Part shown: in pieces, positions 4,362 to 37,305 of the stretch
Layout of the letters: each line of letters starts with the position of its first letter
Numbering within the stretch: the first letter of the stretch is position 1
Sequence record: SRR31156797_10768
Direction: 5' to 3' (one strand)
DNA length: 40,858 bases
Translations under genes and position numbers: made by a program
Notes under the pieces: generated by a model
Database searches by the model: none
What the model was told of the DNA's origin: nothing
What the model saw: the letters and a program-made list of their open reading frames with translations, nothing else

Positions 4362-5078
4362 ATGGATGAAATTTTTGGAAAAATAGGTACGGCTCAAACA
4401 TTAAGTCAAAAAATCGAACGCCGAATCGAAGAAGCAATAAGACAAAAGAAGTTATTGGTTGGAACCAAATTACCTTCTGAGCGAGAATTGTGCGAAATGT
4501 TTGCTGTGAGTCGAACTGCTCTTCGCGAGGCTTTAAGAAGATTGAGTGCTCGAGGATTGATTCAGATCAAAAAAGGTAGTGGAATGTTCGTAAGCGAACT
4601 AAAAGTTGAAGATGCAATAGAATCTTTAAACTTATACTACGATTTAAGTTTCGATAGTGATCTGATTTCTCAAATTATTGAAGTTAGAAGAGTATTTGAA
4701 CCAGAAATTGCGAGAATTGCGGCCCTAAATAGAACAGATGAAGATTTGGCTGTTTTAAATAAAAATATTACTGACCTGGCTGATTGTGATCCGGATAATA
4801 CACAGCTAGAAGCAGATATTATCAATAAATTTCATTTAAATGTAGCCAAAGCAACAGGTAATAAGGTGATGATTATTTCAATGGAACCGATTTATTCATT
4901 GTTACCTAGAATGCGTAATTTAATTTATGCCAATGTAGATGGTGAAAAAGATTTTACTGTAAAGGCACATCGTTCCATTTTTGAAGCCATTCGAGATAAA
5001 AATGGAGATTCAGCTTATAAGGAAATGGCTCTTCAAATCGATCGTACATTAGAAATATATACTCAGCATTTAAAGTAA
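4362..5078 (+). CDS. GntR family, FadR subfamily transcriptional regulator (wHTH + FCD)
   Basis: KLPSERELCEMFAVSRTALREAL...GSGMFV wHTH; FCD-type EVRRVFE, FHLNVAKATGN, HRSIFEAI; ATG 4362 preferred over TTG 4353. Confidence 0.93.
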   Translation: MDEIFGKIGTAQTLSQKIERRIEEAIRQKKLLVGTKLPSERELCEMFAVSRTALREALRRLSARGLIQIKKGSGMFVSELKVEDAIESLNLYYDLSFDSDLISQIIEVRRVFEPEIARIAALNRTDEDLAVLNKNITDLADCDPDNTQLEADIINKFHLNVAKATGNKVMIISMEPIYSLLPRMRNLIYANVDGEKDFTVKAHRSIFEAIRDKNGDSAYKEMALQIDRTLEIYTQHLK

Positions 5079-5096
5079 AATTAAATGAGTGGATGT

Positions 5097-5137
5097 AAAA
5101 AGCGGAGTCTGAAACAAATTTTCAAACTCCGCTTTTT
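5097..5137. terminator. Bidirectional terminator between convergent gntR and murQ
   Basis: AAAAAGCGGAGTCTGAAA...TTTCAAACTCCGCTTTTT with an A-run and a T-run on either side. Confidence 0.8.
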
Positions 5138-5157
5138 GTATTATGTGCGTGTGGTAC

Positions 5158-5994
5158 TTATTCTTTTTTGTATGCTTCAATTGCTTTTTTTACTGAGCCA
5201 TGCTCAAGTAATAAACCTTTCGAGGATTCTTTGTCAAGTTTTAATTCTTCCATGATCATTATGGTTCCTCTCTCAATTAGTTTTTTATTGGTTAACTGCA
5301 TGTTTACCATTTTGTTACCTTTTACTCTCCCCAATTTTATCATCAAACTTGTAGTAATCATATTTAAAATTAGCTTTTGAGCGGTTCCGGCTTTTAACCT
5401 GGTACTTCCAGTTACAAACTCAGGTCCTACAATGGCTTCGATTACAATTTCGGCTTCTTTCGAAACAGGTGCCTCTGGATTGCAGGTAATGCAAGCAGTT
5501 AGTAGACCATGTTCACGAGCTTTTTTTACACCGCCAATTACATAAGGAGTTGTTCCCGATGCAGCAATTCCTAATACCGAATCATTATCGTTAATGTCAT
5601 AATCTTGAAGTTCTGCCCATGCTTTTTCAGGATCATCTTCAGCAGATTCAACAGCACTTCTTAATGCTTTTTCTCCTCCTGCTATCAAACCAATAACGAT
5701 ATTGGCGGGAACTCCAAATGTAGGAGGAAGTTCTGAAGCATCAAGAACGCCAAGTCTTCCACTAGTTCCTGCACCTAGATAAAATAATCTTCCACCCGAT
5801 TTAATTCGATCAATTAAAAGACTAACGAATTTTTCTATTGCAGGAATAGCTTTGTTAACTGCCAAATGAATTTGACCATCCTCTTGATTAATTCCAAGAA
5901 GTAATTCGTTTACCGACATCTTCTCCAGATCAGAAAAATTTGATGGTGCTTCTGTTATTTTGTTATTGGTTTTCTTATTTGGTGTTTTATTCAT
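5158..5994 (-). CDS. murQ: N-acetylmuramic acid 6-phosphate etherase
   Basis: GRLFYLGAGTSGRLGVLDASELPPTF, AVESAED, GIAASGTTPYV, GPEFVTGSTRLKAGTAQKLILNMI, GNKMV. Confidence 0.96.
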   Translation of the reverse strand: MNKTPNKKTNNKITEAPSNFSDLEKMSVNELLLGINQEDGQIHLAVNKAIPAIEKFVSLLIDRIKSGGRLFYLGAGTSGRLGVLDASELPPTFGVPANIVIGLIAGGEKALRSAVESAEDDPEKAWAELQDYDINDNDSVLGIAASGTTPYVIGGVKKAREHGLLTACITCNPEAPVSKEAEIVIEAIVGPEFVTGSTRLKAGTAQKLILNMITTSLMIKLGRVKGNKMVNMQLTNKKLIERGTIMIMEELKLDKESSKGLLLEHGSVKKAIEAYKKE

Positions 5995-6004
5995 GTTTCA
6001 AATC

Positions 6005-6835
6005 TTATTCTTCGATATGGAATTTAATCAAGCCTTCAAGCGGGCTCTTGATTATTTTGCCTAATTGTAGTTTCATTTGTTCAGCAACTACATTTAATTC
6101 GTTTTTAAAATAGTATGCAACACTTCCTATAAAATGAATTGGAAGTGATGAATGATTATTATATTGAGTGATGTTGCGTTCAAAAAACCTGGTGAATTCT
6201 TCTTGAACTAAATTAGTTACATAAGAGTGTTCTATATTTTCGGAAAGAAAAACTGTAAACTGAGCCAAAAAACGGCTCGGTGCTTCTTCTCTGTATACTT
6301 TGTTAATAATATCAGCATATTCTAAATCATGTTTTTTATAAAATGCTTTAGTGATGTCTTCTGGGGCTACTCCTTTTAAAATGTCAGCAATCAGCCTTTT
6401 CCCAAGTACAGCGCCACTTCCTTCATCTCCTAAAATATATCCTAACGGACGAACATTGTGAATGATAGTTTCACCATCATAAAGGCATGAATTTGATCCC
6501 GTCCCAATAATACACGCAATTCCTTTTTCTCTTCCACAAACCGATCTTGCGGCGGCTAAAACATCACTATGAATTTCGCTTGATGCATGCGGAAATACTT
6601 TAAATAAGGCATCTTTTACTTTTTGTTTAGTGCCATCGGTAGCGCAACCTGCTCCATAGAAAAAGATTTGATCAATTGACTGAAAACTTTCAAGAGATTT
6701 AATATTCTCAATTATTGAATTGATGTCTTGATGAAAAGGGTTTATTCCTAAAGTTTGTACTTGTTTATGAACATGCCCTTCATTTAAAAGAATCCAATCC
6801 GTTTTTGTTGATCCGCTTTCCGCAATTAAAATCAT
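6005..6835 (-). CDS. murK: BadF/BadG/BcrA/BcrD-type sugar kinase, probable MurNAc kinase (MurK-like)
   Basis: MILIAESGSTKTDW, FFYGAGC, IIGTGSNS, GYILGDEGSGA, FIGSVA; directly upstream of murQ as in Tannerella; start set to ATG 6835; substrate inferred from context. Confidence 0.75.
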   Translation of the reverse strand: MILIAESGSTKTDWILLNEGHVHKQVQTLGINPFHQDINSIIENIKSLESFQSIDQIFFYGAGCATDGTKQKVKDALFKVFPHASSEIHSDVLAAARSVCGREKGIACIIGTGSNSCLYDGETIIHNVRPLGYILGDEGSGAVLGKRLIADILKGVAPEDITKAFYKKHDLEYADIINKVYREEAPSRFLAQFTVFLSENIEHSYVTNLVQEEFTRFFERNITQYNNHSSLPIHFIGSVAYYFKNELNVVAEQMKLQLGKIIKSPLEGLIKFHIEE

Positions 6836-6851
6836 ATGTTTTTTATTTTTA

Positions 6852-6870
6852 TAACATGTATGATGAGTCA
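6852..6870. promoter_or_regulatory. Putative FadR-type operator, site 1 (murK-murQ)
   Basis: TAACATGTATGATGAGTCA, 15/19 identical to the palindrome at 21658; just upstream of the murK start. Confidence 0.6.
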
Positions 6871-6985
6871 CACTCTGAGGTGAAATTATATTTTAATTTA
6901 GAATTTATCAACTAAATAGCATAAGAAAAGCGTGCTGAAATTATCTCTAAATCCTTTTGTTAATAGGAATTCCACTTTCATGATA

Positions 6986-7106: not shown

Positions 7107-9089
7107 ATGGAAAATCAGATATTACAATTTGGAGGAGAGCTTGATGTAGCTAAGTTGTATTACCAACCATCAGATGAATTCGATAAAACGGTAATGACAA
7201 GATATGAAAAAATGCCTGCTGATATTTTTGCAACAGCTGAGAAAGGTGCAAAATGGGTTGCTCATGAAATTGCAAATTTAATTAGGAAGAAGGCAGATCA
7301 AAATGATTTTTGTGTGCTTGGATTGGCCACCGGTGCAACACCTTTAGGAGTTTATGCAGAATTAGTACGCTTGCATAAAGAGGACGGATTATCGTTTAAA
7401 AATGTGATTACTTTTAATTTGGATGAATATTATCCAATGGTAAATAAGAGTGCGCAAAGCTATAATTATTATATGGATGATGTATTATTTAACCATATTG
7501 ATATACCAAGAGAACAAATTAATGTTCCTGATGGAGAAGTGAGTAAAGAGGGAATATTTAAATATTGTTCTAATTACGAATTGAAAATTGATTCTTTCGG
7601 AGGTCTTGATCTTCAAATTTTAGGAATTGGTAGGACAGGTCATATTGGATTTAATGAACCTGGTTCACAATTAGATTCAAAGACTCGTTTAATCATGCTT
7701 GATTCATTAACAAGACGTGATGCTGCCAAAGATTTTAATGGATTGAATAAGGTGCCAAAAGCTGCTATTACAATGGGAGTTGGAACCATTTTTAAAGCAA
7801 AACGAGTTATTCTAATGGCTTGGGGTGAGGGAAAAGCTTCAATTGTAAAAAAGGCGTTGGAAGAAAGTCAGAGAGATTCAGTTCCAGCAAGTTATTTGCA
7901 GCGTCATGATGATGTGCAATTTGTTTTAGACGTACCAGCAGCGAATGATTTAACACGAGTGAAGCAGCCATGGTTGGTTGGTAGTGTTGAGTGGGATCGT
8001 TTTTGGATTAGAAAAGCAGTTGTTTGGCTTTGTAACACACTAGAGAAGCCCATATTAAAGCTTACCAATAGAGATTATAATGACAATGGCTTAAGTGAAC
8101 TTCTTGCGTGGTATGGATCGGCTTATGAGGTAAATATTAAAGTTTTTAATGACCTGCAGCATACAATATCTGGATGGCCAGGAGGAAAGCCAAATGCTGA
8201 AGATACTTATCGCCCGGAAAGAGCTGTGCCAGCAAGTAAAAGAGTTTTGGTTTTTAGTCCACATCCCGATGATGATGTGATTTCTATGGGTGGAACTTTA
8301 AAAAGATTAGTGGATCAGAATCATGAAGTTCATGTTGCTTATCAAACCTCTGGAAATATTGCTGTTGCTGATGATGAGGCAGTTCGTTACTTGTCTTTTG
8401 TAAAAAGTTTTGCAAGAACACACGATACTAACGAAGGGAATCTTCAGTGTGTTATCGAAGATATTCGTAAGTTTTTACTAGAGAATAAGGAGCCAGGAGG
8501 AATTGATACTCCTGAGGTAAGAAGAATGAAAGCTTTAATTCGAAGAGGAGAAGCTAAAGCTGCTTGTCGATTTGTGGGTGTTCGCTCAAAAAATCTTCAT
8601 TTTCTTGATCTTCCATTCTATGAAACAGGAAAAGTGAAAAAAAATCCAATAGGAGAAGAGGATGTTCAAATTCTTGTTAATTTATTAAGAAAGGTGAAAC
8701 CACACCAAATATTTGCAGCTGGAGATTGGTCCGATCCGCATGGAACTCATCGTGTTTGTTGGGAGGGAATTTATCAGGCTCTTCAAATTGTAAAAGATGA
8801 GGAATGGATGGATAGTTGTTATGTTTGGTTGTATAGAGGAGCTTGGCAGGAGTGGGATTTGGATGAAATACAAATGGCAGTTCCAATTAGTCCGGAAGAA
8901 TTACAACTTAAAAGGAATGCTATTTTACGTCATCAGTCGCAGATGGAATCAGCTCCTTATATGGGTGGAGATTCTCGTTTGTTCTGGCAAAGATCTGAAG
9001 ATAGAAACAGAGCAACAGCTAATTTATTTAATAAGTTAGGCTTAGCAGAATACGAAGCGATTGAAGCATTTGTCAGGTTTATTGTTTAG
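7107..9089 (+). CDS. nagB: Glucosamine-6-phosphate deaminase fused to a PIG-L/LmbE-family deacetylase domain
   Basis: N-terminal LGLATGATP, TFNLDEYY, LGIGRTGHIGFNEPG, AITMGVGTI; C-terminal FSPHPDDDVISMGG, RRGEA, DPHGTHR; 660 aa. Confidence 0.92.
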   Translation: MENQILQFGGELDVAKLYYQPSDEFDKTVMTRYEKMPADIFATAEKGAKWVAHEIANLIRKKADQNDFCVLGLATGATPLGVYAELVRLHKEDGLSFKNVITFNLDEYYPMVNKSAQSYNYYMDDVLFNHIDIPREQINVPDGEVSKEGIFKYCSNYELKIDSFGGLDLQILGIGRTGHIGFNEPGSQLDSKTRLIMLDSLTRRDAAKDFNGLNKVPKAAITMGVGTIFKAKRVILMAWGEGKASIVKKALEESQRDSVPASYLQRHDDVQFVLDVPAANDLTRVKQPWLVGSVEWDRFWIRKAVVWLCNTLEKPILKLTNRDYNDNGLSELLAWYGSAYEVNIKVFNDLQHTISGWPGGKPNAEDTYRPERAVPASKRVLVFSPHPDDDVISMGGTLKRLVDQNHEVHVAYQTSGNIAVADDEAVRYLSFVKSFARTHDTNEGNLQCVIEDIRKFLLENKEPGGIDTPEVRRMKALIRRGEAKAACRFVGVRSKNLHFLDLPFYETGKVKKNPIGEEDVQILVNLLRKVKPHQIFAAGDWSDPHGTHRVCWEGIYQALQIVKDEEWMDSCYVWLYRGAWQEWDLDEIQMAVPISPEELQLKRNAILRHQSQMESAPYMGGDSRLFWQRSEDRNRATANLFNKLGLAEYEAIEAFVRFIV

Positions 9090-9195
9090 ATTTATCAATG
9101 CTTTATTTGGTTTAGGATTTCTTTATCCTAATTTGAGTTTTTTTTTGTTCAATTGTTATTGATTTACAGTGATATATTCAACTATGAATACTATT

Positions 9196-12100
9196 ATGAA
9201 GAAACCATATTATAAAATAATCGGATTGCTTGTAATCATGTTGATTTTCAATTTGAACCTTCAGGCTTCTGAAAAATCTAATCGTAAAAAGCGAAAAGCA
9301 GAAAAAGCAGCTTTAGAATTTGTACAGCATGCTTCAGCTGATTTTATATACAAGTTTAAGCTTGATAGTCTTCGATTAAATTCTGACAGTAAAGAAATTG
9401 TTGTGTATATGAATTCAGTGTTTTCATATATTCCATTTCGTATTGAAACTGTTGATCAGTATCAAACGAATCTTAAAAAAAATTTAGGAAGAAAATTTCG
9501 AAATTATTCTGTTCGCATTGAAACGATGGGAATGGATATTACAAAATTGGTTCCAAATTTATATCGAAAGGAAAATCATTCTTTAGATAAGGATCGTTTA
9601 TCGGTTTTAAAAGATGAAACAAAACCCTTGGTTCGCAGATTGAGTGGAAATACAATACATTCTGGTTTAGACGGAAATCACATCGCATTATGGCATTCTC
9701 ATGGTTGGTATTACGAGAATACTTTGGATAGATGGGAATGGCAAAGAGCAAGAGTTTTTACCACAGTGGAAGATATGTGGACTATGGAGTTTGTTGTGCC
9801 TTATATTGCACCAATGTTGGAGAATGCCGGAGCTATCACCTTGTTTCCCCGTGAAAGAGATGTTCAGAAAAATGAGATTATTGTTGATGCAGATTGGAGT
9901 TCAGGAAATTCAGAGTGCAAGGAAATAGGAAGTTGGGAAACCAATACTCAAAAAGGATTTGCAAACAGATATCCATTTTATCTGGAAGGTGAGAATCCAT
10001 TTGATATGGGAAGTAGTAAGCAAATTGAAGCAAGTGAAAATTCAACTTCCAGTGTACAATATACTCCAGAAATCCCGCAAAAAGGTGAGTATGCTGTTTA
10101 TGTATCCTATTCTTCTGATGATGATAATGTAACGGATGCCCACTATTCCGTTCATCATTCTGGTGGAACTTCAGAGTTTTTAGTGAATCAAAGTATGGGT
10201 GGTAAAACCTGGATCTATCTAGGAACTTTCCTGTTCGAAAAAGGAAAAAATCCTTTAAAAGGAATGGTCGAGTTGAACAATCAAAGTAACGAGCATGGTA
10301 ACTGGGTTTCTGCTGATGCAGTTCGATTTGGGGGAGGAATGGGAAATATTGCTCGTGGTACAAGCGATGAACTTGAAAGTTTAAAAATAGAAAGAAATAA
10401 TTTAGGTTTTGAAATGGATTCTGCAGCTTGGCAAAAATACACAAGCAATCGTCCGCGATATCATGAGGCTGCCCGTTACTATTTACAATATGCGGGAATG
10501 CCAGATTCCATTGTTTATAGTATCAATAAAGATTATAAGGCTGATTATAGCAATCGAGGTAAAGAGGCTGCTAAGTTTCAGAAACGTGAAGAAGGTAAAA
10601 CGGATTACAAGGATGATTACATGAGCAGGGGCGAGTGGGTTGATTATTTAATCGGTGCTCCTTCTGGTCCTACAAAACAAGTTGATGTTAAAGGTTTAAG
10701 TATTCCAATAGATATGGCTTTAGCCTTTCATACTGATGCCGGTATTACGCCTAATGATAATATAATTGGAACTTTAGCTATTTATAATACAACAAGAGGA
10801 GATACTGATATTTTTCCTAACGGACAATCGAAATGGGCTAGTCGTGATTTATGTGATATTGTGCAAACTCAGGTGGTCGATGATATTAGAAAACTATACG
10901 AACCAAAGTGGAATAGAAGAGGAATGTGGAATAAGCAATATTCGGAATCATACCGACCAAAGGTTCCAACTATGCTATCCGAAATGTTGTCGCACCAGAA
11001 TTTCGCTGATATGTATCAGGCAATGGATCCAAAATTCAAGTTTGATGTTAGTAGAGCTTACTATAAAGGAATTCTAAAATTTTTATCAACTCAGGAAGGT
11101 AGAGAATATGTGGTGCAACCATTACCTGTTGATCATTTTAGAATTGATGAATCTGAGAATGGTATTAGGTTAAGCTGGAATGCCGTTGATGATGAATTGG
11201 AGCCAACAGCAAAAGCCGATAAATATAAAGTTTACACGCGAATAAATAATGGTGGTTTCGATAATGGAATTGTTGTAAATGATAATTCTTACGAAATTCA
11301 AAATCTTGAATCTAATGTTATTTATAGCTTTAAGGTTACAGCTCAAAACGATGGTGGTGAAAGTTTTCCTTCGGAGATATTGGCTTATTGTAAGGCGGAA
11401 AATGGACAGAAACCATTTCTTATAGTTAATGGATTTGATAGAGTTTCAGCTCCACAAGGTTTTGATGATGGAAGGTATGCTGGTTTTATGAGCTCTGCAG
11501 ATGAAGGTGTGGCTTATAAAAGAAATATTGCCTACGTCGGCGATCAATATGACTTAGATCGTAAATCAAAATGGTTGGACGATGATGCTTGTGGTCATGG
11601 TTCTTCCTATGCTGATCAGGAGGATAAAATAATACCAGGCAATAGTTTCGATTATCCTTATGTGCATGGTGAGACAATTAAAACAGCAGGTTTTGGTTTT
11701 GTATCTATGAGTGATGAGGCTTTTGAGGAACTGGAATGGAACTCAGAACAATATTTTGGATTGGATCTTATATTTGGAGAGGAAAAAACAACATCGAGAA
11801 TATACGGATTGGAGAATAAAAGTTTTACCATTTACACTCCGAAAATGCGCAAGGCAATTCAAAAATACATTCAATCAAAAAATGCTAAACTGATTTTATC
11901 AGGTGCCTATATTGGTACTGATATTAAATTGTGTGGAGATTCTTTAGTGAAAGAATTTACCGAAAAAGAATTGCATTATCTGTTCAGAACAAATTATGCC
12001 AGCAAGTCGGGATTAGTTTCACATCCAAATGGAGTGAGAAAAGATTTTGATGGCAACTATCGATTTGAAACCGGATTTAATCCAAATATATACAAAGTTG

Positions 12101-13781: not shown

Positions 13782-13802
13782 GATATTGATAGAATAAAAA
13801 AC

Positions 13803-13828: not shown

Positions 13829-13843
13829 ATAGAATATTTGGAG

Positions 13844-14728: not shown

Positions 14729-14760
14729 AATTGAATATTTAATTACCAGTTATATAAAAC

Positions 14761-28694: not shown

Positions 28695-28704
28695 TTTTAA
28701 TGCA

Positions 28705-29880
28705 ATGAAACAAATTTCATTTATAGTACTCTTTTTAATGTGTGTAGCTTGTTCTAATAATTTGGAATTATTACAGCGAGTGGAGCAAATAACTAATGGG
28801 ATTAAAAATAAGATGGCTCCAGATAGTAGGGAGACCATATTTCAAATAAAATTTTATTTCGAAAAAAATAATAAGTTAGTGATTAGGGGTGAAACTTCTC
28901 TGCCAGATGCGAAAGTTGCCTTGCTGACAGCTGTTAAAGAATTAGGAGTTCAATGTATAGATAGTGTATGCTTACTACCTGATGAGAAATTGGGAGAAAG
29001 AAATTGGGCTCTGATAAATTTAAGTGTTGTTAATCTTAGAGCAAATCCAAGGCATTCGGCAGAGCTTGTTTCTCAAGCCATAATGGGTACTCCCGTAAAA
29101 ATCCTTAAGAAAGAAAATTTCTGGTATTTAGTTCAAACTCCCGATAAATATATTGCTTGGGTTGATGCAGCTGCATTAAATCTCAGAAATGAGCAGGAGA
29201 TGCAAGAGTGGAGAGAATCAAAAAGAGTGATTTTTAAACCATCTTTTGAGGTTGCTTCTGGTGGTAATGGGAAAGAAGTAGTTACCGATATTGTTGCAGG
29301 ATCTATTCTTGAGATTGATGCAACATTGGGAAAAAGTTTTCTATTGAAATTACCTGATGGTCGCTCTATTAAATTGGATAAAAATAAGTGTGAGAAGTTT
29401 AATGAATGGAAAGTGAGAAATATCACTGATGTAACTATTTTAACTTTAACAGCAAAACAATTTATGGGAAGACCTTATTTATGGGGTGGCACTTCTTCAA
29501 AGGGAGTGGATTGTAGTGGTTTTGTAAAGTCAGTTTACTTTATGAATGGTATAATCCTTGCGCGAGATGCCTCTCTTCAGTTTCTTCATGGTCAGCCTAT
29601 TTTGCCAAGCCAAGGATTTAGGGATTTAAGAGAAGGTGATTTGGTGTTTTTTGGTAGAAAGGCTACCGAGGAGTCATCTCAAAAAGTTACTCATGTGGGA
29701 ATGTATATGAAGGATGGTGAATTTATTCATTCGTCTGGTCGTGTTAAGATTAATAGTTTCGATCCGAAAGCTTATAATTTTAGTAATTATAGAACTGTGA
29801 GTTGGTTGGGAGGACGAAGAATTTTAAATAGAATCGGCGAAGAAGGAATAGTACGTGTAGCAAATCATCCATGGTATTAA
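28705..29880 (+). CDS. ykfC: SH3b-NlpC/P60 gamma-D-Glu-diaminoacid endopeptidase (YkfC/dipeptidyl-peptidase VI-like), lipoprotein
   Basis: Start moved to ATG 28705 (MKQISFIVLFLMCVAC lipobox); NLRANP..SAELVSQAIMGTPVKIL, PYLWGGTS..GVDCSGF, LARDASLQ, GDLVFFG, THVGMY, FIHSSG. Confidence 0.88.
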   Translation: MKQISFIVLFLMCVACSNNLELLQRVEQITNGIKNKMAPDSRETIFQIKFYFEKNNKLVIRGETSLPDAKVALLTAVKELGVQCIDSVCLLPDEKLGERNWALINLSVVNLRANPRHSAELVSQAIMGTPVKILKKENFWYLVQTPDKYIAWVDAAALNLRNEQEMQEWRESKRVIFKPSFEVASGGNGKEVVTDIVAGSILEIDATLGKSFLLKLPDGRSIKLDKNKCEKFNEWKVRNITDVTILTLTAKQFMGRPYLWGGTSSKGVDCSGFVKSVYFMNGIILARDASLQFLHGQPILPSQGFRDLREGDLVFFGRKATEESSQKVTHVGMYMKDGEFIHSSGRVKINSFDPKAYNFSNYRTVSWLGGRRILNRIGEEGIVRVANHPWY

Positions 29881-29895: not shown

Positions 29896-31035
29896 ATGAA
29901 AATTGATAGAAGGAAATTTTTAGGGAATACAGGTTTGTTGCTAGGTGCTAGTTGTGTACTCCCATTGAATGGCGGTTGTGGTAATATAAGTGCCAATGAA
30001 TCTAATTATAAAGGTAAAGGATTAAAGTTAAGCTTTGAGCCGTATGATTTACAATTGAAACATGTTTTCACTATCGCATCTTTTTCAAGAACAACAACAC
30101 CGGTTATGCTCGTGAAAATTGAGTGGGGTGGAGTTGTTGGTTATGGTGAAGCTTCTATGCCTCCCTATTTAGGAGAATCTCACGAAACGGCGACTAAATT
30201 TTTAAAAAGTCTTAAACTAAATCAATTTCACGATCCATTTCGATTAAATGAGATATTATCATATGTTGATGGTGTTGCAAATGGGAATTGTGCAGCGAAA
30301 GCTTCTATCGATATTGCTTTGCATGATTTGATAGGAAAACTAATGGAAAAGCCATGGTTTAAAATATGGGGGTATAATAAAGAGGATACGCCAGTAACAA
30401 CTTTTACAATTGGCATTGATAAACCTGATGTTGTTGTTGAAAAAGTTAAGGAAGCTGTACCATATAAAATGCTTAAGGTAAAAATTGGTAGAGGTAATGA
30501 TGAGGAAATGATCAAGACAATTCGGACTGTTACCAATATCCCTTTATGTGTTGATGTGAATCAAGGGTGGAAAGATAAACATGAAGCCTTGGATAAAATT
30601 CATTGGTTGAAGGAACAAGGTGTTGTATTTGTTGAGCAACCGATGGATAAGCATGATTTAAATACCATGGCGTGGTTGACACAGCATAGTCCTCTTCCAA
30701 CAATTGCTGATGAAGGTATTCAGCGTTTAGCAGATATACCAAACTTGAGTGGGGCTTATTCAGGTATCAATATCAAATTAATGAAATGTACAGGTATGCG
30801 TGAGGCGCATAAAATGATGAATTTGGCTCGATCCTTAGATATGAAAGTAATGATAGGTTGTATGACCGAAACTTCTGTTGGAGTGAGTGCAGCTGCTCAA
30901 CTTTCTCCTATGGTTGATTGGGCTGATTTGGATGGGAATTTATTAATATCGAATGATCCATTTAAAGGTGTAACAGTTAAGGAAGGTAAAGTGATATTAC
31001 CAGATCAATCAGGAATAGGAGTAATTAAATTGTAA
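29896..31035 (+). CDS. ykfB: L-Ala-D/L-Glu dipeptide epimerase (enolase superfamily) with twin-arginine signal
   Basis: DRRKFL Tat motif; GYGEA, AKASIDIALHDL, LKVKIG, VDVNQGW, VEQP, IADEG, NIKLMKCTG, MIGCMTE, ADLDG. Confidence 0.88.
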   Translation: MKIDRRKFLGNTGLLLGASCVLPLNGGCGNISANESNYKGKGLKLSFEPYDLQLKHVFTIASFSRTTTPVMLVKIEWGGVVGYGEASMPPYLGESHETATKFLKSLKLNQFHDPFRLNEILSYVDGVANGNCAAKASIDIALHDLIGKLMEKPWFKIWGYNKEDTPVTTFTIGIDKPDVVVEKVKEAVPYKMLKVKIGRGNDEEMIKTIRTVTNIPLCVDVNQGWKDKHEALDKIHWLKEQGVVFVEQPMDKHDLNTMAWLTQHSPLPTIADEGIQRLADIPNLSGAYSGINIKLMKCTGMREAHKMMNLARSLDMKVMIGCMTETSVGVSAAAQLSPMVDWADLDGNLLISNDPFKGVTVKEGKVILPDQSGIGVIKL

Positions 31036-31079
31036 TCTAAATATAACACTATATAATTTGCTAATCTAAATTTAATACT

Positions 31080-34000
31080 ATGAAAAAAATTGCGTGCTTA
31101 GCGTTAATTATACTTCTTAGCTGGCAGATATCCTGGGCACAGGAATTGCTAGTGAAGGGTACGGTTACAGGTAGCGATAATGTAACTTTACCAGGGGTAT
31201 CAATTGTACAAAAAGGAACTTCTACAGGAACCATTACCGATATTGATGGTAAATACGAAGTGAAAGCAGAAGTTGGTGCTACTTTGGTATTTACTTTTGT
31301 TGGAATGGAACCTCAAGAGATTGTGCTCACAGGACAACAAGTTATTGACGTAGTGCTGATACCTCAGTCGATTGGAGTTGACGAAGTTGTAGTTACAGCT
31401 TTGGGAATTAAAAAGAGTAAAAAATCTTTGGGGTATGCAGTTCAGAATATAAAATCTGATGAATTACTTGCTGGTAACCAGAGTAATATGGTTAATACTT
31501 TGCAAGGGAAAATTGCAGGGGTAAGCATTAGTAGTGCTGGTGGATCACCAGGAGCTTCGTCGATTATCATGATTAGAGGTGGTTCTTCATTAAGTGGAAA
31601 TAACCAACCTTTATTTATTGTTGATGGATTACCTATCGATAACTCTACGAACTCGAGTTCTGAAGTTGCAAGTGCTAACCGTGCTTCCGATATTAATCCA
31701 GAGGATATAGAATCTATATCTGTATTGAAAGGTGCTACAGCCGCTGCTCTTTATGGTATACAAGCCGCTGAAGGTGCTATTATCATTACAACTAAAAAAG
31801 GTAAAACAGGTGAAGGTAAAATTTCATTCTCTTCTACTTTATCTGTTGATGAGGTTATAGGTACTCCTGATATACAGAATACCTTCGGACAGGGAAGTTA
31901 CGAATACAATAGCGATGGAGATATTCTTGGTTACGACCCATCACCAGGAATACACTTACAGTCTTGGGGTGATGTAATTCCTGAAGGAACTCCTACTTAT
32001 GATAATATTAGTAACTTATTCGAGAAGGCAGTCACACAAAAATACAATGTGAACTACTCAGGAGGTAATGATCAAACAAATATATTTGCTTCTGCATCTT
32101 ATTTAGATCAAAATGGTGTTATCGAAAACACAGGTTACGAAAAACTGAACCTTACTTTTAACGCACAGTCGAAATTTAGAAAAAACTTGACTATTGGTGT
32201 TAATGCTAAGTATATTAATACTCAAACTAAAAGTAATAAACAAGGCACCTCTTCGGGTGGTTCTTTTATAAGTATGCTTAAATATCCTGTTACCTACGAT
32301 GCTCGTGATTATGCAAACGAAGATGGTACACAAAAGATATTTATGGATTCAAAAGAAGATCAAGAATTTGATAATCCTTACTGGAGTCTTGACAATTCTC
32401 CTAATACTGATGAGGTTGATAGATTAATTGGACAAGTTAATTTGAATTATAAACCTCTCGATTATCTTACAATTTCTTATCGTTTAGGAACCGACTATTA
32501 TTCTCAATTTAATAAGAAGATTACTGATTTTGGATCTCTTATAAAAGGTAGATCTGATGGTTACCTAAGGCAGTATGAGAAGACTAGTCGTTTAGTGACT
32601 TCTACGCTTCTTGTTATGATGAATAAAACTTTCGACGAAGATTATTCTCTTGACGTAACTTTAGGACATACAGTGGACGAAAAGAAGACAAGAACAACCT
32701 ATACAGGAGGTAATAAGTTTCAAGCTCCTGATATTTATAGTGTGTCAAATATTGCTGCTGATGACCAAACTCTTTCCGAATCTAAATATAGAAGAAGAAG
32801 TATGGGTGTTTTTGGTGAAGCTAAGTTTGGCTGGAAAAACATAGCATTTTTAAATGTAACCGGAAGAAACGACTGGTCTTCTACCTTACCGATTGGAGAT
32901 CATTCATTCTTCTATCCATCTGTAGGTACTTCTGTTGTTGTTTCCGATCTTCTTAATGAATTAGGTACTGATATTACTTCAGATAAGTTCCTTTCATACC
33001 TTAAGTTGAGAGCTACCTGGGCACAGGTTGGTAAAGATGCAAGCGCTCATATGTCAGAATCTTATTTAACACTACGTTCATGGCACTATGTTCCTGTTTC
33101 TGATGGTTATACTTGGAATTCAGACCAAGCTGGTAATCCAAATTTGAAACCTGAATTTACCACTTCATTTGAAATTGGTATGGATGCTCGCTTTTTCAAG
33201 AATAGAGTTAAATTGGATTTTAGTTACTACCATAGTTTATCTGAAGATCAACTCTTAAATGTGAGACTACCGCCGGCTGCAGGTGCTTATATTGCTCAGC
33301 TAAATGGTGGATCTGTTAAAAACGAAGGATACGAAGCTTTAGTTAATGTTTCTTTATTTCCTAGATCTAGTGAATTCCAGTGGGATATGTCTTTCAATTT
33401 TGCAAAAATGGAAAGTACTGTTTATGATCTTCCTGGTGAATTAGTTGAGGTAAATAACGATCAGTCGTGGACATGGAATAGCACAGCTTTAGGTGCTGCT
33501 GTCTTGGATGGTAATCTTTTCGGATTAAAGGGTAAAAGACCAAAGAGAAACGAAAATGGTGATAGGATAGTTAATAGCGATGGAAATTATTCGCTTGGCG
33601 AGGATATCTTTCCGGATGTTGATCGTATGCCAGATTGGACCATGGGGATTATCAATTCAATGTCGTACAAAAATTTCAGATTGTCATTCCTTGTCGATAT
33701 GAGTATTGGTGGAGATGTTTACAATGCTACTGAAGCTGCATTAACTTATTATGGTTTAAGTACTACTTCAGAGAACCGATCTATGACCGAAACAATGGTT
33801 TTGGATGGTGTTATGGCAAATGGTGTAGATGCTGATGGAAATACGATTTATGAGAAAAATACGACTCCTATCTTGAGAGATCAGAGATACTATCAAGATC
33901 AGTATGCTCAAAATGCTGAGAACTTTATTGAGGATGCTACATACGTTAAACTTAGATATGTAACACTTTCTTATAATCTTCCTAAGACTCTTCTTGATAA

Positions 34001-34190
34001 GATTGGTTTCGATGGAATGGAAGTTTTTGCAACTGGTAGAAATCTAATAATGATTTCTGATTACTCAGGTGTTGATCCTGAAATTGCTTCTTTTGGTGCC
34101 TCTGTTAGTGGTTCTGGAGCTATAGGTCTTGATAATCTAAGTACTCCTAATACTAAAGGTTTTGATTTAGGTGTTAAAATTAATTTCTAA
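31080..34190 (+). CDS. susC: SusC/RagA TonB-dependent transporter
   Basis: Signal peptide; GTITDIDGKY, EVVVTALGI, PLFIVDG, DINPEDIESISVLKGATAAALYG, RNDWSSTLP, LKLRATW, C-terminal F. Confidence 0.97.
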   Translation: MKKIACLALIILLSWQISWAQELLVKGTVTGSDNVTLPGVSIVQKGTSTGTITDIDGKYEVKAEVGATLVFTFVGMEPQEIVLTGQQVIDVVLIPQSIGVDEVVVTALGIKKSKKSLGYAVQNIKSDELLAGNQSNMVNTLQGKIAGVSISSAGGSPGASSIIMIRGGSSLSGNNQPLFIVDGLPIDNSTNSSSEVASANRASDINPEDIESISVLKGATAAALYGIQAAEGAIIITTKKGKTGEGKISFSSTLSVDEVIGTPDIQNTFGQGSYEYNSDGDILGYDPSPGIHLQSWGDVIPEGTPTYDNISNLFEKAVTQKYNVNYSGGNDQTNIFASASYLDQNGVIENTGYEKLNLTFNAQSKFRKNLTIGVNAKYINTQTKSNKQGTSSGGSFISMLKYPVTYDARDYANEDGTQKIFMDSKEDQEFDNPYWSLDNSPNTDEVDRLIGQVNLNYKPLDYLTISYRLGTDYYSQFNKKITDFGSLIKGRSDGYLRQYEKTSRLVTSTLLVMMNKTFDEDYSLDVTLGHTVDEKKTRTTYTGGNKFQAPDIYSVSNIAADDQTLSESKYRRRSMGVFGEAKFGWKNIAFLNVTGRNDWSSTLPIGDHSFFYPSVGTSVVVSDLLNELGTDITSDKFLSYLKLRATWAQVGKDASAHMSESYLTLRSWHYVPVSDGYTWNSDQAGNPNLKPEFTTSFEIGMDARFFKNRVKLDFSYYHSLSEDQLLNVRLPPAAGAYIAQLNGGSVKNEGYEALVNVSLFPRSSEFQWDMSFNFAKMESTVYDLPGELVEVNNDQSWTWNSTALGAAVLDGNLFGLKGKRPKRNENGDRIVNSDGNYSLGEDIFPDVDRMPDWTMGIINSMSYKNFRLSFLVDMSIGGDVYNATEAALTYYGLSTTSENRSMTETMVLDGVMANGVDADGNTIYEKNTTPILRDQRYYQDQYAQNAENFIEDATYVKLRYVTLSYNLPKTLLDKIGFDGMEVFATGRNLIMISDYSGVDPEIASFGASVSGSGAIGLDNLSTPNTKGFDLGVKINF

Positions 34191-34201
34191 AATTGTAATA
34201 A

Positions 34202-35902
34202 ATGAAAAACTTAAATATAATTAGCGGAATTCTAGTTTTACTTTTGTTAGGAGGATTGGTTTCCTGTTCCGATGATTTTTTCGATGTTAATGAATCAGAA
34301 ACAAAACCATCGAATATGTCTTTGCCTCCTCAACAACGATTGATGGCTACGATAGATAATACTACCGGTTTTGGACAAAGTAGATTGTCTAGAGAAGGTA
34401 CTGTGCTCTCTTATCATATTACTGAAAGAACAACATATTATTCAAGATGGAGATGGGGAACGGTTTCTTATGCCGCTGAGCAGTATCTATATACTAATGC
34501 TCTTCCAAATACTGCCGATTTAATTGTTTTAGGTGAAGAATACAATTCGCCTCATTATTCTGCAGTTGGAAAAATATTAAGAGCGTATCTTTTTTCTATG
34601 GTTAGCGATCAGCTTGGTGATATAATAATGGAAGATTCGTATAATGCTAAAGATCAGCTTATTCTTACGCCAAAGTTAACTTCGCAAAAGGATGCTTATA
34701 AAGGAATACATGAGCTTATCGATGAAGCTCTTTTAGATTTTGATAAGCCAAATGAAATTGATCTAAATGTAATTGGTACAGATGTGATGTTCCAGGGTGA
34801 TGTTGAGAAGTGGAAGAAATTTGCCTGGGCTCTTAAGGCTCGTCTTCTTAATCATATGACTGCTAAAACTTCGGGTGATTTTAAATATGATCCAGCAGCT
34901 GTTATTGCTGCCTGTGGGAAAGCTATGAGTTCAAATGCAGACAATGCAAAAAGAGAATTTACTGGTGAAGAGACTCAAAATAATATCTATCCATGGTCTG
35001 ATACTGAAGGTGGAGAAGTAGAAGGTGCTTTTGATTCTCGTGCAGACAATTGGTCAAAGTTTTTTGTTGACAATCTTAAGGATCCATTAATTTTAAATAA
35101 TGAATCTGTCCCAGATCCACGCCTACCTCTTATCGTACAGCCTGCTTTAGATGCAGAGCTTTATGGCTTGACAGGTTTAGATATGTATCAAGGTGTTCCT
35201 ATGGGAACATATCGTGAAAATGGTTTTAATGGAGTAAAAGAGACGGTAGATTTTGTTGCTGGTGATATTAATCCGTTTACAGGAGAACCTTTTGAAGAGG
35301 ACATTACAATTGTTATGGATTCAACAGAATATTTCTCCAGAGGTCATCAATATGGTAAGCCTAATGGTCTGTTCTATACTAGTCCAAATTCTGATTGGTA
35401 TTTGATTACGTATGCCGAATGTAAATTTATTGAAGCTGAGGCAAACTTTAGAAATGGCGATAAAGGGGCTGCTTTTGCTGCATACAGAGAAGGTATTAAT
35501 GCAGATATGACAAATATGGGTGTTGATGCTGCTGAAATTGCTGCTTATTTAACTCAAGTTGATAATCTTGGTTCGGCAAATATTACTCTAGAGCGCATAA
35601 TGACTCAAAAACATATTGCAACGGTAATGAATCCTGAAACTTGGGTTGATTTACGTAGAGTTGAGTACGATAATACTTTTACAAGGCTTAAGAGACCTCA
35701 AAATCTTAATGCTAGTATATTCCCAGCTTCAGGTGATGAAGTTGATGGTAATGAGGTGTGGATTCGTGCTCTTAAATATGATAAAAGAAATATTGAGAGA
35801 AATTCAGCGAATTTACCTGATAATGATGATGCATCACGTTTCCCTACTAGAGTTTGGTGGAACACTCCTGATGCTGATGATGTAGTTGATTTAACGAAGT
35901 GA
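34202..35902 (+). CDS. susD: SusD/RagB lipoprotein
   Basis: Lipobox LVSC; ILRAYLFSMVSDQLGDI, GDVEKWKKFAWALKAR, DPRL, ITYAECKFIEAEA, ETWVDLRR; 11 bp downstream of susC. Confidence 0.92.
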   Translation: MKNLNIISGILVLLLLGGLVSCSDDFFDVNESETKPSNMSLPPQQRLMATIDNTTGFGQSRLSREGTVLSYHITERTTYYSRWRWGTVSYAAEQYLYTNALPNTADLIVLGEEYNSPHYSAVGKILRAYLFSMVSDQLGDIIMEDSYNAKDQLILTPKLTSQKDAYKGIHELIDEALLDFDKPNEIDLNVIGTDVMFQGDVEKWKKFAWALKARLLNHMTAKTSGDFKYDPAAVIAACGKAMSSNADNAKREFTGEETQNNIYPWSDTEGGEVEGAFDSRADNWSKFFVDNLKDPLILNNESVPDPRLPLIVQPALDAELYGLTGLDMYQGVPMGTYRENGFNGVKETVDFVAGDINPFTGEPFEEDITIVMDSTEYFSRGHQYGKPNGLFYTSPNSDWYLITYAECKFIEAEANFRNGDKGAAFAAYREGINADMTNMGVDAAEIAAYLTQVDNLGSANITLERIMTQKHIATVMNPETWVDLRRVEYDNTFTRLKRPQNLNASIFPASGDEVDGNEVWIRALKYDKRNIERNSANLPDNDDASRFPTRVWWNTPDADDVVDLTK

Positions 35903-35920
35903 TCTTTATTACTACCAATT

Positions 35921-35956
35921 TATAGCTGTCTTTTTTTAAGAGGCGGCTGTATTTTT
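35921..35956 (+). terminator. Intrinsic terminator after susD
   Basis: TATAGCTGTCTTTT...AAGAGGCGGCTGTA G-U-rich stem followed by TTTTT. Confidence 0.6.
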
Positions 35957-36040
35957 AGAAAAGAATAGCGGAGGGTGGAGTGATGACTTTAAGCTATAAA
36001 GTCAAACTTACACTGGTCGCAAGTTAGTTTAGTTAGTAAG

Positions 36041-36080
36041 CATTATAAAGTGTAGAGTAGCTACTTTGCACTTTATAATG
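36041..36080 (+). repeat. 40-bp near-perfect palindrome upstream of the NAGPA-like gene
   Basis: CATTATAAAGTGTAGAGTAG|CTACTTTGCACTTTATAATG; 18/20 Watson-Crick pairs, the other two are G-U on the plus strand. Confidence 0.8.
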
Positions 36081-36090
36081 TATTTGTTTA

Positions 36091-37305
36091 ATGCAAGTGA
36101 AGACACGATTTTTAATAAGCATAGTTGTGAAAAAGAACAAAGACAATACCTTAAATACTTATGGGAAATTGCACTTTCCAAGATTATTTTTTCTGGTTTT
36201 GTTTGCTTTTTTCGTTACGAACACCTTCGCTTCTGTTCCTCATACAACTAAGAATGAGAAAGAGGATGGTATAGTATATAGTAAGATTACTTTAAAGAAT
36301 GGACCTGTTGTTATTCATCAGTTACGCATTGATTTATCCAATCAAGATTTTGAGTTTTCAGGAGGTATAGCTAATTCATACTTAGGATTTGGTTTAGAGA
36401 AAACTTCGCAAATAGTAGAAGATGAAAAACAGAAGGGGCATAAAATCATAGCAGCTATAAATGCTGATTTTTTTTGTGGATTTAATCCCGTTTTTCAGAA
36501 TTGCATGATTATCGATGGAGAATTTGTGAAAGGAGTTAAAATGTCTAGAACTCTTTTTGCGGTAAACAAACAAGGTGATATTCGTTTGGATAACTATAAA
36601 TTTAATGGACTAGGTATTATCTGTAAAGATACGATTGCTTTCGACGGACTTAATGTACCTGTTGAAAATAACAAGTGTTGTTTCTATAATAAATACTACA
36701 GAAAAATGCCAGTTCAAAACGATTCTGTTATATACTGGAGAATTAAACCATTAGGCAAGTTCAAAATTGATTCTATTAGTGAATATCAAATAGTAGAGCA
36801 ATTGATTAATCCTGATTCTTTAAATTTTGTCTCAGATTCTAAATACATAGGAATTCATCAATCGCTGAATAGTAGGTTAAAAATAAATGATAGAATTGGA
36901 ATTCGATTAGGTGTTTTCCCTAAGGAAATTGATCCATATTTTATGATTGGGGGCTTACCAAGATTAATTCAAAATGGTAAAAGAATTAATCACTTTAAAG
37001 ATAGAGAAGGATTAACACGTAAAGGTTTTTGGAAAGATCGGCATCCAAGAACTGCGATTGGTATTGATCACAAAATCAATTGCATGTACATGCTTGTTGT
37101 TGATGGTCGTCAACCAGGATACAGTATGGGGATGAGCTTAAAGGAGCTTGGAAAATATCTTCAGAAAATTGGCTGCGATGAAGCTCTGAATTTTGATGGA
37201 GGTGGATCTTCAACATTGATTTTTGATCAAAAAATAATGAATCAACCCTCCGATAAGAAAGGGGAACGAAGTGTTTCTAATATATTCTATATAAAGAAGC
37301 GTTAG
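36091..37305 (+). CDS. Phosphodiester glycosidase (NAGPA/DUF2233) family protein, probably exported
   Basis: AAINADFF, RHPRTAIG, LVVDGRQ, SMGMSL, ALNFDGGGSS, PSD..GERSVSN; hydrophobic segment near the N-terminus; true start uncertain (GTG 36127 or TTG 36169 possible). Confidence 0.88.
   Translation: MQVKTRFLISIVVKKNKDNTLNTYGKLHFPRLFFLVLFAFFVTNTFASVPHTTKNEKEDGIVYSKITLKNGPVVIHQLRIDLSNQDFEFSGGIANSYLGFGLEKTSQIVEDEKQKGHKIIAAINADFFCGFNPVFQNCMIIDGEFVKGVKMSRTLFAVNKQGDIRLDNYKFNGLGIICKDTIAFDGLNVPVENNKCCFYNKYYRKMPVQNDSVIYWRIKPLGKFKIDSISEYQIVEQLINPDSLNFVSDSKYIGIHQSLNSRLKINDRIGIRLGVFPKEIDPYFMIGGLPRLIQNGKRINHFKDREGLTRKGFWKDRHPRTAIGIDHKINCMYMLVVDGRQPGYSMGMSLKELGKYLQKIGCDEALNFDGGGSSTLIFDQKIMNQPSDKKGERSVSNIFYIKKR

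Follow-up and report, generated by a model that had tools for sequence, protein, structure and literature searches.

The closest known system to the locus analysed here is the peptidoglycan (PG)-salvage operon of Tannerella forsythia. Our locus, positions 4353-37305 of a 40,858-nucleotide stretch of DNA from record SRR31156797_10768 (the window), joins a SusC/SusD pair (SusCD), of the type found in polysaccharide utilisation loci (PULs), to genes of PG and amino-sugar families. According to the available parts of the published accounts, the T. forsythia operon (Tanf_08345-08385) comprises 'xanthan lyase', gtf, gtf, lytB, ampG, ybbC/namZ1, murT, murK and murQ and is regulated by GppX, and the organism, a N-acetylmuramic acid (MurNAc) auxotroph without MurA and MurB (PMC7670621), grows on foreign PG via AmpG, MurT, MurK and MurQ (PMC5388701, PMC7670621). 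By annotation, as matched to the published legend, gene families and, with insertions, most of their order appear to be shared with the window (Golvesin/Fn3, GT2, DUF4922, SpoIID/LytB, AmpG, NamZ, sodium:solute symporter (SSF), BadF-type kinase, MurQ). The window locus adds SusCD, AnmK, YkfC/YkfB, an AmiA-like amidase, GHL10, NagX and a NagB-PIG-L fusion, and its genes are distributed over both strands in about nine predicted units. Its regulator is of the GntR type, whereas that of T. forsythia is a hybrid two-component system, and two close relatives of the window (genomes G001 and G002) keep MurA and MurB. In the accessible parts of the two T. forsythia papers no outer-membrane importer is named; 'TonB' occurs zero times, and a SusD component is not mentioned either.

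For Bacteroides thetaiotaomicron, a periplasmic stem-peptide route has been proposed that consists of BT1087 (AmiA domain), BT1314 (YkfC) and BT1313 (YkfB-like epimerase) (Xu et al. 2015, PMC4600125). An AmiA-like amidase, YkfC and the epimerase are all encoded in the window too, the latter two by adjacent genes like BT1313/BT1314. That route was, however, proposed for recycling of the organism's own wall, and PMC4600125 contains no mention of SusD or TonB; in the window the two genes run on into susCD, and a segment with a twin-arginine motif extends the N-terminus of the epimerase.

Like canonical Sus-like PULs, the locus brings together adjacent susC and susD genes (11 bp apart), enzymes that cleave glycans, transporters of the inner membrane and a regulator. 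The pair itself is recognised by TIGR04056, TIGR04057, PF12771/PF12741 and a lipoprotein cysteine. Carbohydrate-active enzymes (GHL10, NamZ, PG amidases and peptidases) lie nearby, over 27 kb and in several inferred units rather than one operon. In the accessible part of a survey of PULs, the PG-targeting families GH23, GH24, GH25 and GH73 are under-represented, yet present in 'several predicted PULs' (Lapebie 2019, PMC6499787). Unlike in canonical PULs, the inferred substrate is a glycopeptide (PG fragments), and a GntR-type regulator takes the place of a hybrid two-component system (HTCS), an extracytoplasmic function (ECF)/anti-sigma pair or SusR. Proteobacterial and Bacillus PG recycling (AmpG-AnmK-MurQ; murQ-murP-yfeW, a linkage known from E. 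coli; NamZ/NagZ) shares AmpG, AnmK, MurQ, a PBP4B-like protein and NamZ with the window, but handles the cell's own turnover products and involves no TonB-dependent importer. Pfam and NCBIfam scans of the window did not detect NagZ, AmpD, LdcA or Mpl.

The locus combines features of PULs with features of PG salvage or recycling clusters, both of them known kinds. A first-pass annotation of the window had described it as a PUL for feeding on foreign cell walls, and had added that no PG-specific SusCD PUL of this completeness appeared to be characterised. In the literature outside subscription journals and supplements we likewise found no characterised PG-specific SusCD PUL, the accessible part of Lapebie (2019) noting only predicted ones; a 2026 review of bacterial glycoside transporters contains neither MurNAc nor muramic, and peptidoglycan only in a reference title. 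We consider it fairly probable that the locus is a PG-fragment utilisation locus on the PUL plan, with import by SusCD, dismantling in the periplasm and conversion to fructose-6-phosphate in the cytoplasm.

Between 4353 (first open reading frame (ORF), with its ATG at 4362) and 37305 (end of the last), the ORF listing and the Pfam and NCBIfam scans gave 22 contiguous ORFs, nearly all of PG or amino-sugar families, which bears out the approximately 20 genes of the first-pass annotation. Assignments were made by Pfam, NCBIfam and PDB-sequence searches; signal peptides and lipoprotein cysteines were read by eye from the N-termini. MurQ, AnmK, NamZ, GHL10, the AmiA-like amidase, SpoIID/LytB, NagB-PIG-L, SusC and SusD are clear members of their families, with scores above cut-off. 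The window has a G+C content of about 34% and a uniformly positive GC skew. The SusD of an 'uncultured Marinifilum sp.' assembly shares 97% identity with the one encoded here; for two Marinifilum assemblies and one Labilibaculum metagenome-assembled genome the value is 93-95%. Judged by these identities, the source is a Marinifilum-like marine Bacteroidota.

Association of the SusC/SusD pair with peptidoglycan genes

The SusC/SusD pair stands directly behind two genes for stem-peptide processing:

28606-29880, + strand: YkfC-like SH3b-NlpC/P60 gamma-D-Glu-diamino-acid peptidase (PF00877, PF08239, PF18348)
29896-31035, + strand: YkfB-like enolase-superfamily dipeptide epimerase (PF13378, PF02746)
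31080-34190, + strand: SusC/RagA-type TonB-dependent outer-membrane transporter (TIGR04056, 695.9 bits, cut-off 368.25; TIGR04057, 52.5 bits, cut-off 46.2; Plug, CarboxypepD_reg)
34202-35902, + strand: SusD-like lipoprotein (PF12771, 163.7 bits; PF12741, 80.1 bits; Cys followed by SDDFF)
35921-35951, + strand: terminator-like hairpin, 14 pairs and a T-run, directly 3' of susD

Against the PDB, SusD had 19 SusD-family matches (best 5j5u, E 5.5e-16). An acidic stretch after the lipoprotein cysteine, such as SDDFF, resembles the surface-export signal of Bacteroidota lipoproteins.

In a genome collection, the best SusCD relative besides four Marinifilaceae loci was found in Olivibacter ginsenosidimutans (SusC 41%, SusD 36% identity), where the row (L005) reads DeoR, then SusC-SusD-Amidase_2-NamZ-MurQ-symporter, then NagX, the amidase being a lipoprotein by eye. 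A protein database yielded 138 SusD relatives at E ≤ 1e-30, among them a block at 39-45% identity that carries names of marine Flavobacteriaceae (Galbibacter, Gelidibacter, Zunongwangia, Maribacter, Salegentibacter, Lutibacter and others) and of Marinilongibacter. A search with SusD at the same threshold in 401 phylum-wide genomes, with few candidates scored per genome, returned only the Marinifilum relative and none of the 400 others.

A metagenome scan with an alignment of 26 SusD relatives (A1) as query returned 80 loci, the DNA of which was searched by tblastn with the 28 proteins of the window and the Olivibacter amidase (E ≤ 1e-8, coverage > 35%). Three same-species loci (L052-L054) and eight loci without a SusD match passing the coverage filter were left out of the tallies. 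Where SusD was at least 39% identical, PG-family genes were present in 18 of 25 loci, or in 16 of 19 when a flank of 3 kb or more besides SusCD was required. At 33-38% identity the count was 14/38 (13/29 with at least 3 kb of flank), mostly through an Amidase_2 gene right behind SusD, and below 33% it was 0/6. The loci at 39% or above contained genes for Amidase_2 (9), YkfB-like protein (9), MurQ (5), GHL10 (5), YkfC (3), the symporter (3) and NagB-PIG-L (2). As controls, PG-family genes were found at 2/20 loci of the lowest-ranked SusC relatives from a sample of 401 Bacteroidia genomes and at none of five distant SusD loci (L006-L010). The difference between 16/19 and 2/20 is significant (Fisher test, P = 3.4e-6). 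The synteny check proposed in the first-pass annotation therefore came out in its favour for the clade of at least 39% identity: clustering of SusCD with PG genes lies above chance, which supports the prediction that the pair belongs with these genes functionally.

In other families and orders, the neighbours of SusD relatives include MurQ, Amidase_2, GHL10, NamZ, a MurT-like symporter and YkfB/YkfC, at a frequency far above that seen for control SusCD pairs. The arrangements vary. One metagenomic locus (L075) reads MFS-GH20-MurQ-SusC-SusD-GHL10-symporter-YkfB-YkfC (MFS, major facilitator superfamily), with Amidase_2-NagB-PIG-L-ROK on the opposite strand and GH20, GHL10, YkfC and Amidase_2 as lipoproteins by eye. 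Genome G246 (L018), on the other hand, has the ykfC-ykfB-susC order of the window, with genes for a NAGPA-family protein and GHL10 downstream. Loci of this kind are widespread among the database relatives and in the metagenome scan, and the gene kit is not unique to the window.

Predicted pathway

Each step below is predicted from family membership. Outside the cell, the SusD surface lipoprotein would bind soluble muropeptides or short PG strands shed by other bacteria, and SusC would draw them through the outer membrane on TonB energy. A GlcNAc-MurNAc-tetrapeptide monomer (GlcNAc, N-acetylglucosamine) already reaches or exceeds the size that porins usually admit, which makes a TonB-dependent importer plausible; the presence of such an importer in turn points to exogenous fragments. 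Five exported proteins, besides YkfC and YkfB, could act on the imported material:

9169-12306, + strand: exported Golvesin_C/Fn3 protein of 1045 residues (PF25275, PF00041)
13838-14728, + strand: AmiA-like (DUF1460) MurNAc-L-Ala amidase (PF07313, 183.6 bits; PDB 2p1g, 4h4j; lipoprotein signal by eye)
20300-21577, - strand: exported NamZ exo-beta-N-acetylmuramidase (PF07075, 290.3 bits; PF20732, 139.3 bits; signal peptide by eye)
21863-23356, + strand: exported GHL10/Cwp19-like PG lytic transglycosylase (PF02638, 264.8 bits, cut-off 27.9)
25040-26974, - strand: exported PBP4B-like beta-lactamase-fold protein (PF00144, 146.5 bits; NF002968 PBP4B, 144.5 bits, below cut-off)

Export signals were seen by eye on the AmiA-like amidase (lipoprotein), YkfC, YkfB (RRKFLG), SusC, SusD, NamZ, GHL10, the PBP4B-like protein, the Golvesin/Fn3 protein and a phosphoesterase encoded downstream. 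By eye, a lipoprotein cysteine is confined to the AmiA-like amidase, SusD and perhaps YkfC, the signal peptides of the exported enzymes being otherwise of the ordinary kind.

In the periplasm, the GHL10 protein would cut glycan strands to give anhydro-MurNAc ends. It matches Clostridioides difficile Cwp19 (PDB 5oq2, E 6.6e-96, residues 23-390), the GHL10 domain of which, according to the accessible part of its description, degrades PG as a lytic transglycosylase, releasing 1,6-anhydro-muropeptides (PMC6016235). We therefore predict that it is a Cwp19-like lytic transglycosylase, which would give the locus a glycan-strand-cleaving enzyme whose type of product fits AnmK and the AmiA-like amidase. 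NamZ would take off terminal MurNAc. Stem peptides would be stripped by the AmiA-like lipoprotein, AmiA being known to act on GlcNAc-anhydro-MurNAc-peptide (summarised in PMC4600125), and probably also by the large Golvesin/Fn3 protein. The first-pass annotation had spoken of DUF1460 amidases in the plural; the locus encodes a single one. The PBP4B-like protein would trim stem peptides; it has an additional N-terminal domain of about 230 residues with a very weak GH3_C match (E 0.11), and in Rhodothermus marinus a GH3 NagZ is fused to a beta-lactamase domain (PMC6987092).

The Golvesin/Fn3 protein is the counterpart, by annotation, of the first gene ('xanthan lyase') of the T. forsythia operon. 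Its residues 515-636 form an Amidase_3-like stretch (E 0.001, below cut-off), and PF01520 is found in some members of its very large family (E ≤ 1e-20 for 7287 of 8000 scored candidates). In the PDB it matches only 6f2p, a C-terminal domain from the xanthan lyase of Paenibacillus, and an AlphaFold2 (AF2) model built from 22 sequences had a mean confidence score (pLDDT) of 60, falling below 50 in the putative amidase region. The same ORF was considered as a second SusC of about 1000 residues and rejected; the locus has a single SusCD pair.

Also in the periplasm, YkfC would cleave the gamma-D-Glu-diamino acid bond, after which a Tat-exported YkfB epimerase would convert L-Ala-D-Glu to L-Ala-L-Glu. 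YkfC has the SH3b-SH3b-NlpC/P60 architecture, and an in-frame ATG at 28705 is its likelier start, followed by a signal or lipoprotein sequence. Over residues 134-424 it is closely similar to characterised Bacteroides enzymes (PDB 3npf, E 1e-59; 3pvq/4r0k, E 7e-58). Entries 3pvq/4r0k and the 3iji family are presumably proteins of B. ovatus and B. thetaiotaomicron; 3iji/3ijl/3ijq, which the YkfB-like protein matches at E 2.8e-147 over residues 43-379 only, we take to be the dipeptide epimerase of the latter. Bacteroides YkfC accepts free stem peptides only, which AmiA makes, a conserved Tyr in SH3b1 and an Asp in NlpC/P60 binding the free N-terminal L-Ala (PMC4600125). The N-terminus of the YkfB-like protein (29896-30021) is a 42-residue extension with a twin-arginine-like RRKFLG that is missing from the solved homologue chain. 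In a class-wide search, matches reaching into this extension were mostly those with an adjacent ykfC, while other orthologues mostly began at about residue 43, suggesting that the epimerase may be Tat-exported in a ykfC-adjacent sub-clade.

At the inner membrane, AmpG and the MurT-like symporter would carry disaccharides and MurNAc inward:

17263-18564, + strand: AmpG-family MFS permease (TIGR00901, 180.9 bits, cut-off 350)
19151-20260, + strand: NagX-like transmembrane glucosamine N-acetyltransferase (NF046061, 159.3 bits, under the 480-bit cut-off)
23508-24947, + strand: sodium:solute symporter, candidate MurT-like MurNAc transporter (PF00474; TIGR00813 under cut-off)

TIGR00901 is still the best match of the permease, and the accessible part of a T. 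forsythia study gives merely 27% identity between its AmpG and that of E. coli (PMC7670621). Context points to an AmpG role, the import of disaccharide or muropeptide over the inner membrane. All three genes recur with related SusCD pairs: a permease homologue (57% identical) adjoins SusCD in L028, NagX-like genes stand beside it in L005 and L116, and symporter homologues (51-65% identity) come after SusD or GHL10 in L005, L068, L073, L075 and L116.

In the cytoplasm, AnmK and the MurK-like kinase would yield MurNAc-6-phosphate, MurQ would convert this to GlcNAc-6-phosphate, and the NagB-PIG-L fusion would lead on to fructose-6-phosphate:

4353-5078, + strand: GntR/FCD-family regulator (NanR-like), candidate locus regulator (PF00392, PF07729)
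5158-5994, - strand: MurQ, MurNAc-6-phosphate etherase (NF003915, 364 bits, cut-off 168; TIGR00274, 303.7 bits, cut-off 302)
6005-6871, - strand: BadF-type sugar kinase, MurK/GlcNAc-kinase family (weak PF01869), 10 bp upstream of murQ
7107-9089, + strand: NagB-like deaminase fused to a PIG-L deacetylase domain (NF002557, 1048 bits; TIGR00502 nagB, 255.5 bits, cut-off 236.9; PF02585)
12324-13781, + strand: GT2 glycosyltransferase-family protein, cytoplasmic by eye (PF00535)
14761-15744, + strand: DUF4922 protein (PF16269, 209.7 bits), with weak likeness to diadenosine tetraphosphate (Ap4A) phosphorylase/nucleotidyl-transferase
15756-17087, + strand: SpoIID/LytB-domain protein (TIGR02669, 170 bits, cut-off 83.3; PF08486)
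18607-19146, + strand: GDSL esterase, candidate de-O-acetylase, without signal peptide (PF13472)
27294-28397, + strand: AnmK, anhydro-MurNAc kinase (PF03702, 459.5 bits; NF007139, 483.6 bits, cut-off 367)

No export signal was seen by eye on the N-termini of MurQ, the kinase, AnmK, NagB-PIG-L, GT2, DUF4922, the GDSL esterase or the SpoIID/LytB protein; for the last, a signal peptide was looked for at the ORF start and, oddly, not seen. The kinase has PDB relatives of either sugar specificity (1zbs, E 1e-78; 8ow9, a 'putative novel MurNAc kinase', E 9e-70; 8oqk/8ow7, 'N-acetylglucosamine kinase'). The regulator, with NanR as its best NCBIfam match (132 bits, under cut-off), probably controls the genes of the locus, judging by its position. 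The DUF4922 protein matches the PDB only through 4i5t at E 0.03. GT2 and DUF4922 beside ampG could mean some anabolic reuse. The GT2, DUF4922 and signal-less SpoIID/LytB genes (12324-17087) share a row with ampG, and the T. forsythia legend likewise has 'gtf, gtf, lytB'.

Transcription unit and conservation of susCD

According to the ORF coordinates, the gaps between ykfC and ykfB, ykfB and susC, and susC and susD are 15, 44 and 11 bp, as the first-pass annotation had stated. A scan for terminator-like sites found 18, against 8.3 ± 2.9 in shuffled sequences, with strong hairpins at 24973-25010 (after the symporter), 35921-35951 and 36040-36081 (after susD), 37363-37388 (after the NAGPA-family gene) and 39909-39950 (after a 364-residue ORF), and none of comparable strength between ykfC and susD. 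The short gaps and the position of the first strong hairpin, just past susD, suggest that ykfC-ykfB-susC-susD is probably one transcription unit; the first-pass statement of one transcript was too strong, co-transcription being predicted only. A scan for sigma-70 promoters gave 84 sites against 85.9 in shuffles, hence no signal; Bacteroidota promoters differ from the type scanned, and an exact TAnnTTTG was not found by eye in the 44-bp ykfB-susC gap.

Eleven RNA-library runs contain small shares of the region (at most 0.13). Contigs from four of the RNA runs (13, 19, 25 and 58 contigs) cover parts of ykfC, ykfB, susC and susD, and in run X1 seven contigs are at least 99% alike. Among the contig pieces listed, 0/32 bridge the ykfB-susC gap. 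Several contigs start near 31057-31060, upstream of which relatives' contigs diverge from the window. Run X4 has high depth on susCD and near zero on ykfCB, most of its contigs being 90-95% alike; contigs give neither level nor starts. The RNA-library contigs show neither transcription nor co-transcription.

The susCD cassette (31058-35950) is far better conserved between Marinifilaceae species than its neighbours, as comparison of the window with L004, L002 and L003 reveals. Against Marinifilum sp. RC60d5 (L004), SusC and SusD are 94% and 96% identical, with third-codon-position identities of 0.80 and 0.77; for AnmK, YkfC, YkfB, the phosphoesterase, the 364-residue ORF and GlnA (94% at the protein level) third-position identity is only 0.46-0.59. 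In L002 a ykfC-like gene lies downstream of susCD, not upstream. This pattern reads as a recent exchange of the susCD unit between Marinifilaceae species, the alternative being the codon bias of highly expressed genes.

Alternative explanations

Several results weigh against a PG-fragment utilisation locus on the PUL plan, or narrow it. For AmpG, NagX, PBP4B, the symporter and the epimerase, the top matches score under NCBIfam cut-offs; for the last of these, NF011708 gives 126 bits (cut-off 343), NF041118 130 (500) and its best match, DgcA, 202 (400). Pfam and NCBIfam scans recognised no beta-N-acetylglucosaminidase (GH3, GH20, GH73) in the window, and in G001, the 97% relative, the closest GH20 gene shares a contig with the locus but lies tens of kb away, while the GH3 genes are on a different contig. 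Neither a surface endo-enzyme, a T9SS C-terminal or cargo domain, SusE/F nor an extra surface glycan-binding protein, as a PUL might be expected to carry, was recognised in the window by Pfam scans and by eye from the N-termini; soluble fragments are therefore favoured as substrates and intact sacculi are unlikely ones. No L-Ala-L-Glu dipeptidase lies inside 4362-37305; an M20 'dipeptidase' at 2618-4039, just upstream of the GntR regulator (NF006053, 537 bits, cut-off 441), could supply this cleavage from outside the locus. The first-pass description of a self-contained route from surface capture to fructose-6-phosphate is consequently too strong. SusD specificity, moreover, is not readable from sequence, and the substrate assignment is a prediction.

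The association with PG genes has exceptions of its own. Within the close clade, the query set used detected no PG gene at L064, L069 and L070, all of them long loci, and the closest pair in the class sample (genome G669, L012; SusC 42%, SusD 36%) lies in a FecR/second-transporter (STN) context without PG genes. The SusC search of the 401 Bacteroidia genomes, a coarse sample with two candidates scored per genome, gave matches at E ≤ 1e-130 in 65, and only five of the 20 best SusC relatives (L013, L017, L018, L026, L028) have a PG-family neighbour. YkfB-like matches occur in 114 of the 401 genomes; outside Marinifilum, ykfC is adjacent in eight of the 21 best YkfB orthologues and SusC lies within 5 kb in only three (G246, with the window order, G669 and G230). 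Matches to the YkfB-like protein at 32-40% identity may, furthermore, be other enolase-superfamily enzymes, and excluding loci that rest solely on them lowers 18/25 to 16/25. PG-linked SusCD pairs are, in view of these results, recurrent without a single universal arrangement, the ykfCB-susCD fusion being one layout among several. In genome G669, PG genes accompany SusC proteins of two further lineages (L035, ykfC-ykfB-SusC; L144, GHL10-SusC-SusD with NamZ nearby).

Adjacency of SusCD might be incidental, the PG genes being an ordinary recycling cluster and SusCD importing a glycan that has nothing to do with PG, for instance chitin oligomers or a different amino-sugar polymer. The apparent recent exchange of the cassette independently of its neighbours, the different position relative to ykfC in L002, the lack of PG neighbours at L012 and the suitability of NagB, NagX, GH20 and ROK for chitin use all fit this explanation. 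The link of the SusD clade to MurNAc-specific genes (MurQ, NamZ, Amidase_2, GHL10) recurs across orders, however, far above controls, and makes it very unlikely. Import of free stem peptides rather than sugar-bearing fragments, with the glycan handled separately or coming from the cell's own turnover, has a precedent in the peptide importer RagAB, and both the location of susCD directly behind ykfC-ykfB and the Tat-type signal on YkfB, which would imply periplasmic peptide processing, agree with it. An amidase is needed only if sugar and peptide are still joined on import, so the observation that a MurNAc-L-Ala amidase gene is the commonest one right after SusD (22 of 63 loci at ≥ 33% identity) counts against peptide-only import, as does the presence of MurQ, GHL10, NamZ and a MurT-like symporter around the SusCD pair; we regard this explanation as quite unlikely.

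Another candidate is salvage or recapture for the organism's own wall synthesis, from its own leaked turnover or neighbours' fragments, instead of feeding on necromass. MurA and MurB score above cut-off in G001 and G002, the 97% and 95% SusD relatives (MurB 250.5/239.7 bits, cut-off 144.5; MurA 449.9/445.9 bits, cut-off 392.7), so there is no MurNAc auxotrophy in them and no auxotroph salvage. MurQ and NagB-PIG-L lead to glycolysis through fructose-6-phosphate, and an importer in the outer membrane is not required for the cell's own turnover products, since the periplasm is where they are released. The order Golvesin/Fn3, GT2, DUF4922, LytB, AmpG, NamZ, symporter, kinase, MurQ nevertheless mirrors the T. 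forsythia salvage operon by annotation, and GT2 and the nucleotidyl-transferase-like DUF4922 gene look anabolic. We judge this explanation unlikely, while noting that feeding and salvage or recapture leave the same trace in sequence. What stands of the first-pass reading is that SusCD probably belongs with PG catabolism and hence points to exogenous wall fragments; completeness, a single transcript and uniqueness were overdrawn.

We know of no outer-membrane route for PG fragments above the porin limit in Gram-negative scavengers, even T. forsythia. In sediments, soils and guts, PG makes up a large share of bacterial necromass that is rich in nitrogen, and a SusCD clade whose genes keep company with those for MurQ, NamZ, amidases and a Cwp19-like lytic transglycosylase is a concrete, testable candidate for the outer-membrane step. 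Extending the predicted utilisation of PG fragments beyond the window, we tentatively propose that this clade might be a dedicated muropeptide importer, the missing outer-membrane step of PG scavenging in Bacteroidota, and that such loci might form a widespread 'selfish' cell-wall PUL class in which susCD is swapped as a cassette and downstream NAGPA, phosphoesterase and CotH-like genes may handle phosphodiester-linked polymers of Gram-positive prey. If true, the PUL paradigm would extend to a glycopeptide substrate, susCD would provide a pair of marker genes by which cell-wall recycling could be followed in metagenomes and metatranscriptomes, and removal of muropeptides by such loci could affect host sensing of these immune-active molecules.

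Downstream genes and tandem pairs

The last gene of the locus follows the hairpins behind susD:

36091-37305, + strand: NAGPA-family phosphodiester glycosidase-like protein (PF09992, 115.4 bits; PDB 3ohg, 6ozd)

Downstream of susD (36091-39878), the NAGPA-family gene, a calcineurin-like phosphoesterase gene and an exported ORF of 364 residues each end at a terminator-like hairpin. The 364-residue ORF (38784-39878) has no Pfam or PDB match, and the ESM Atlas gave only a CotH-kinase-like lead. Speculatively, these three genes might process phosphodiester-linked wall polymers. A NAGPA gene is found again in L018, 4.4 kb downstream of SusCD, whereas L004 lacks one.

In many relatives (L057, L063, L081, L091, L102, L103, L104, L123) the PG-linked pair has a tandem neighbour, a further SusC/SusD pair whose SusC is 30-37% identical, which suggests two importers for different classes of fragments.

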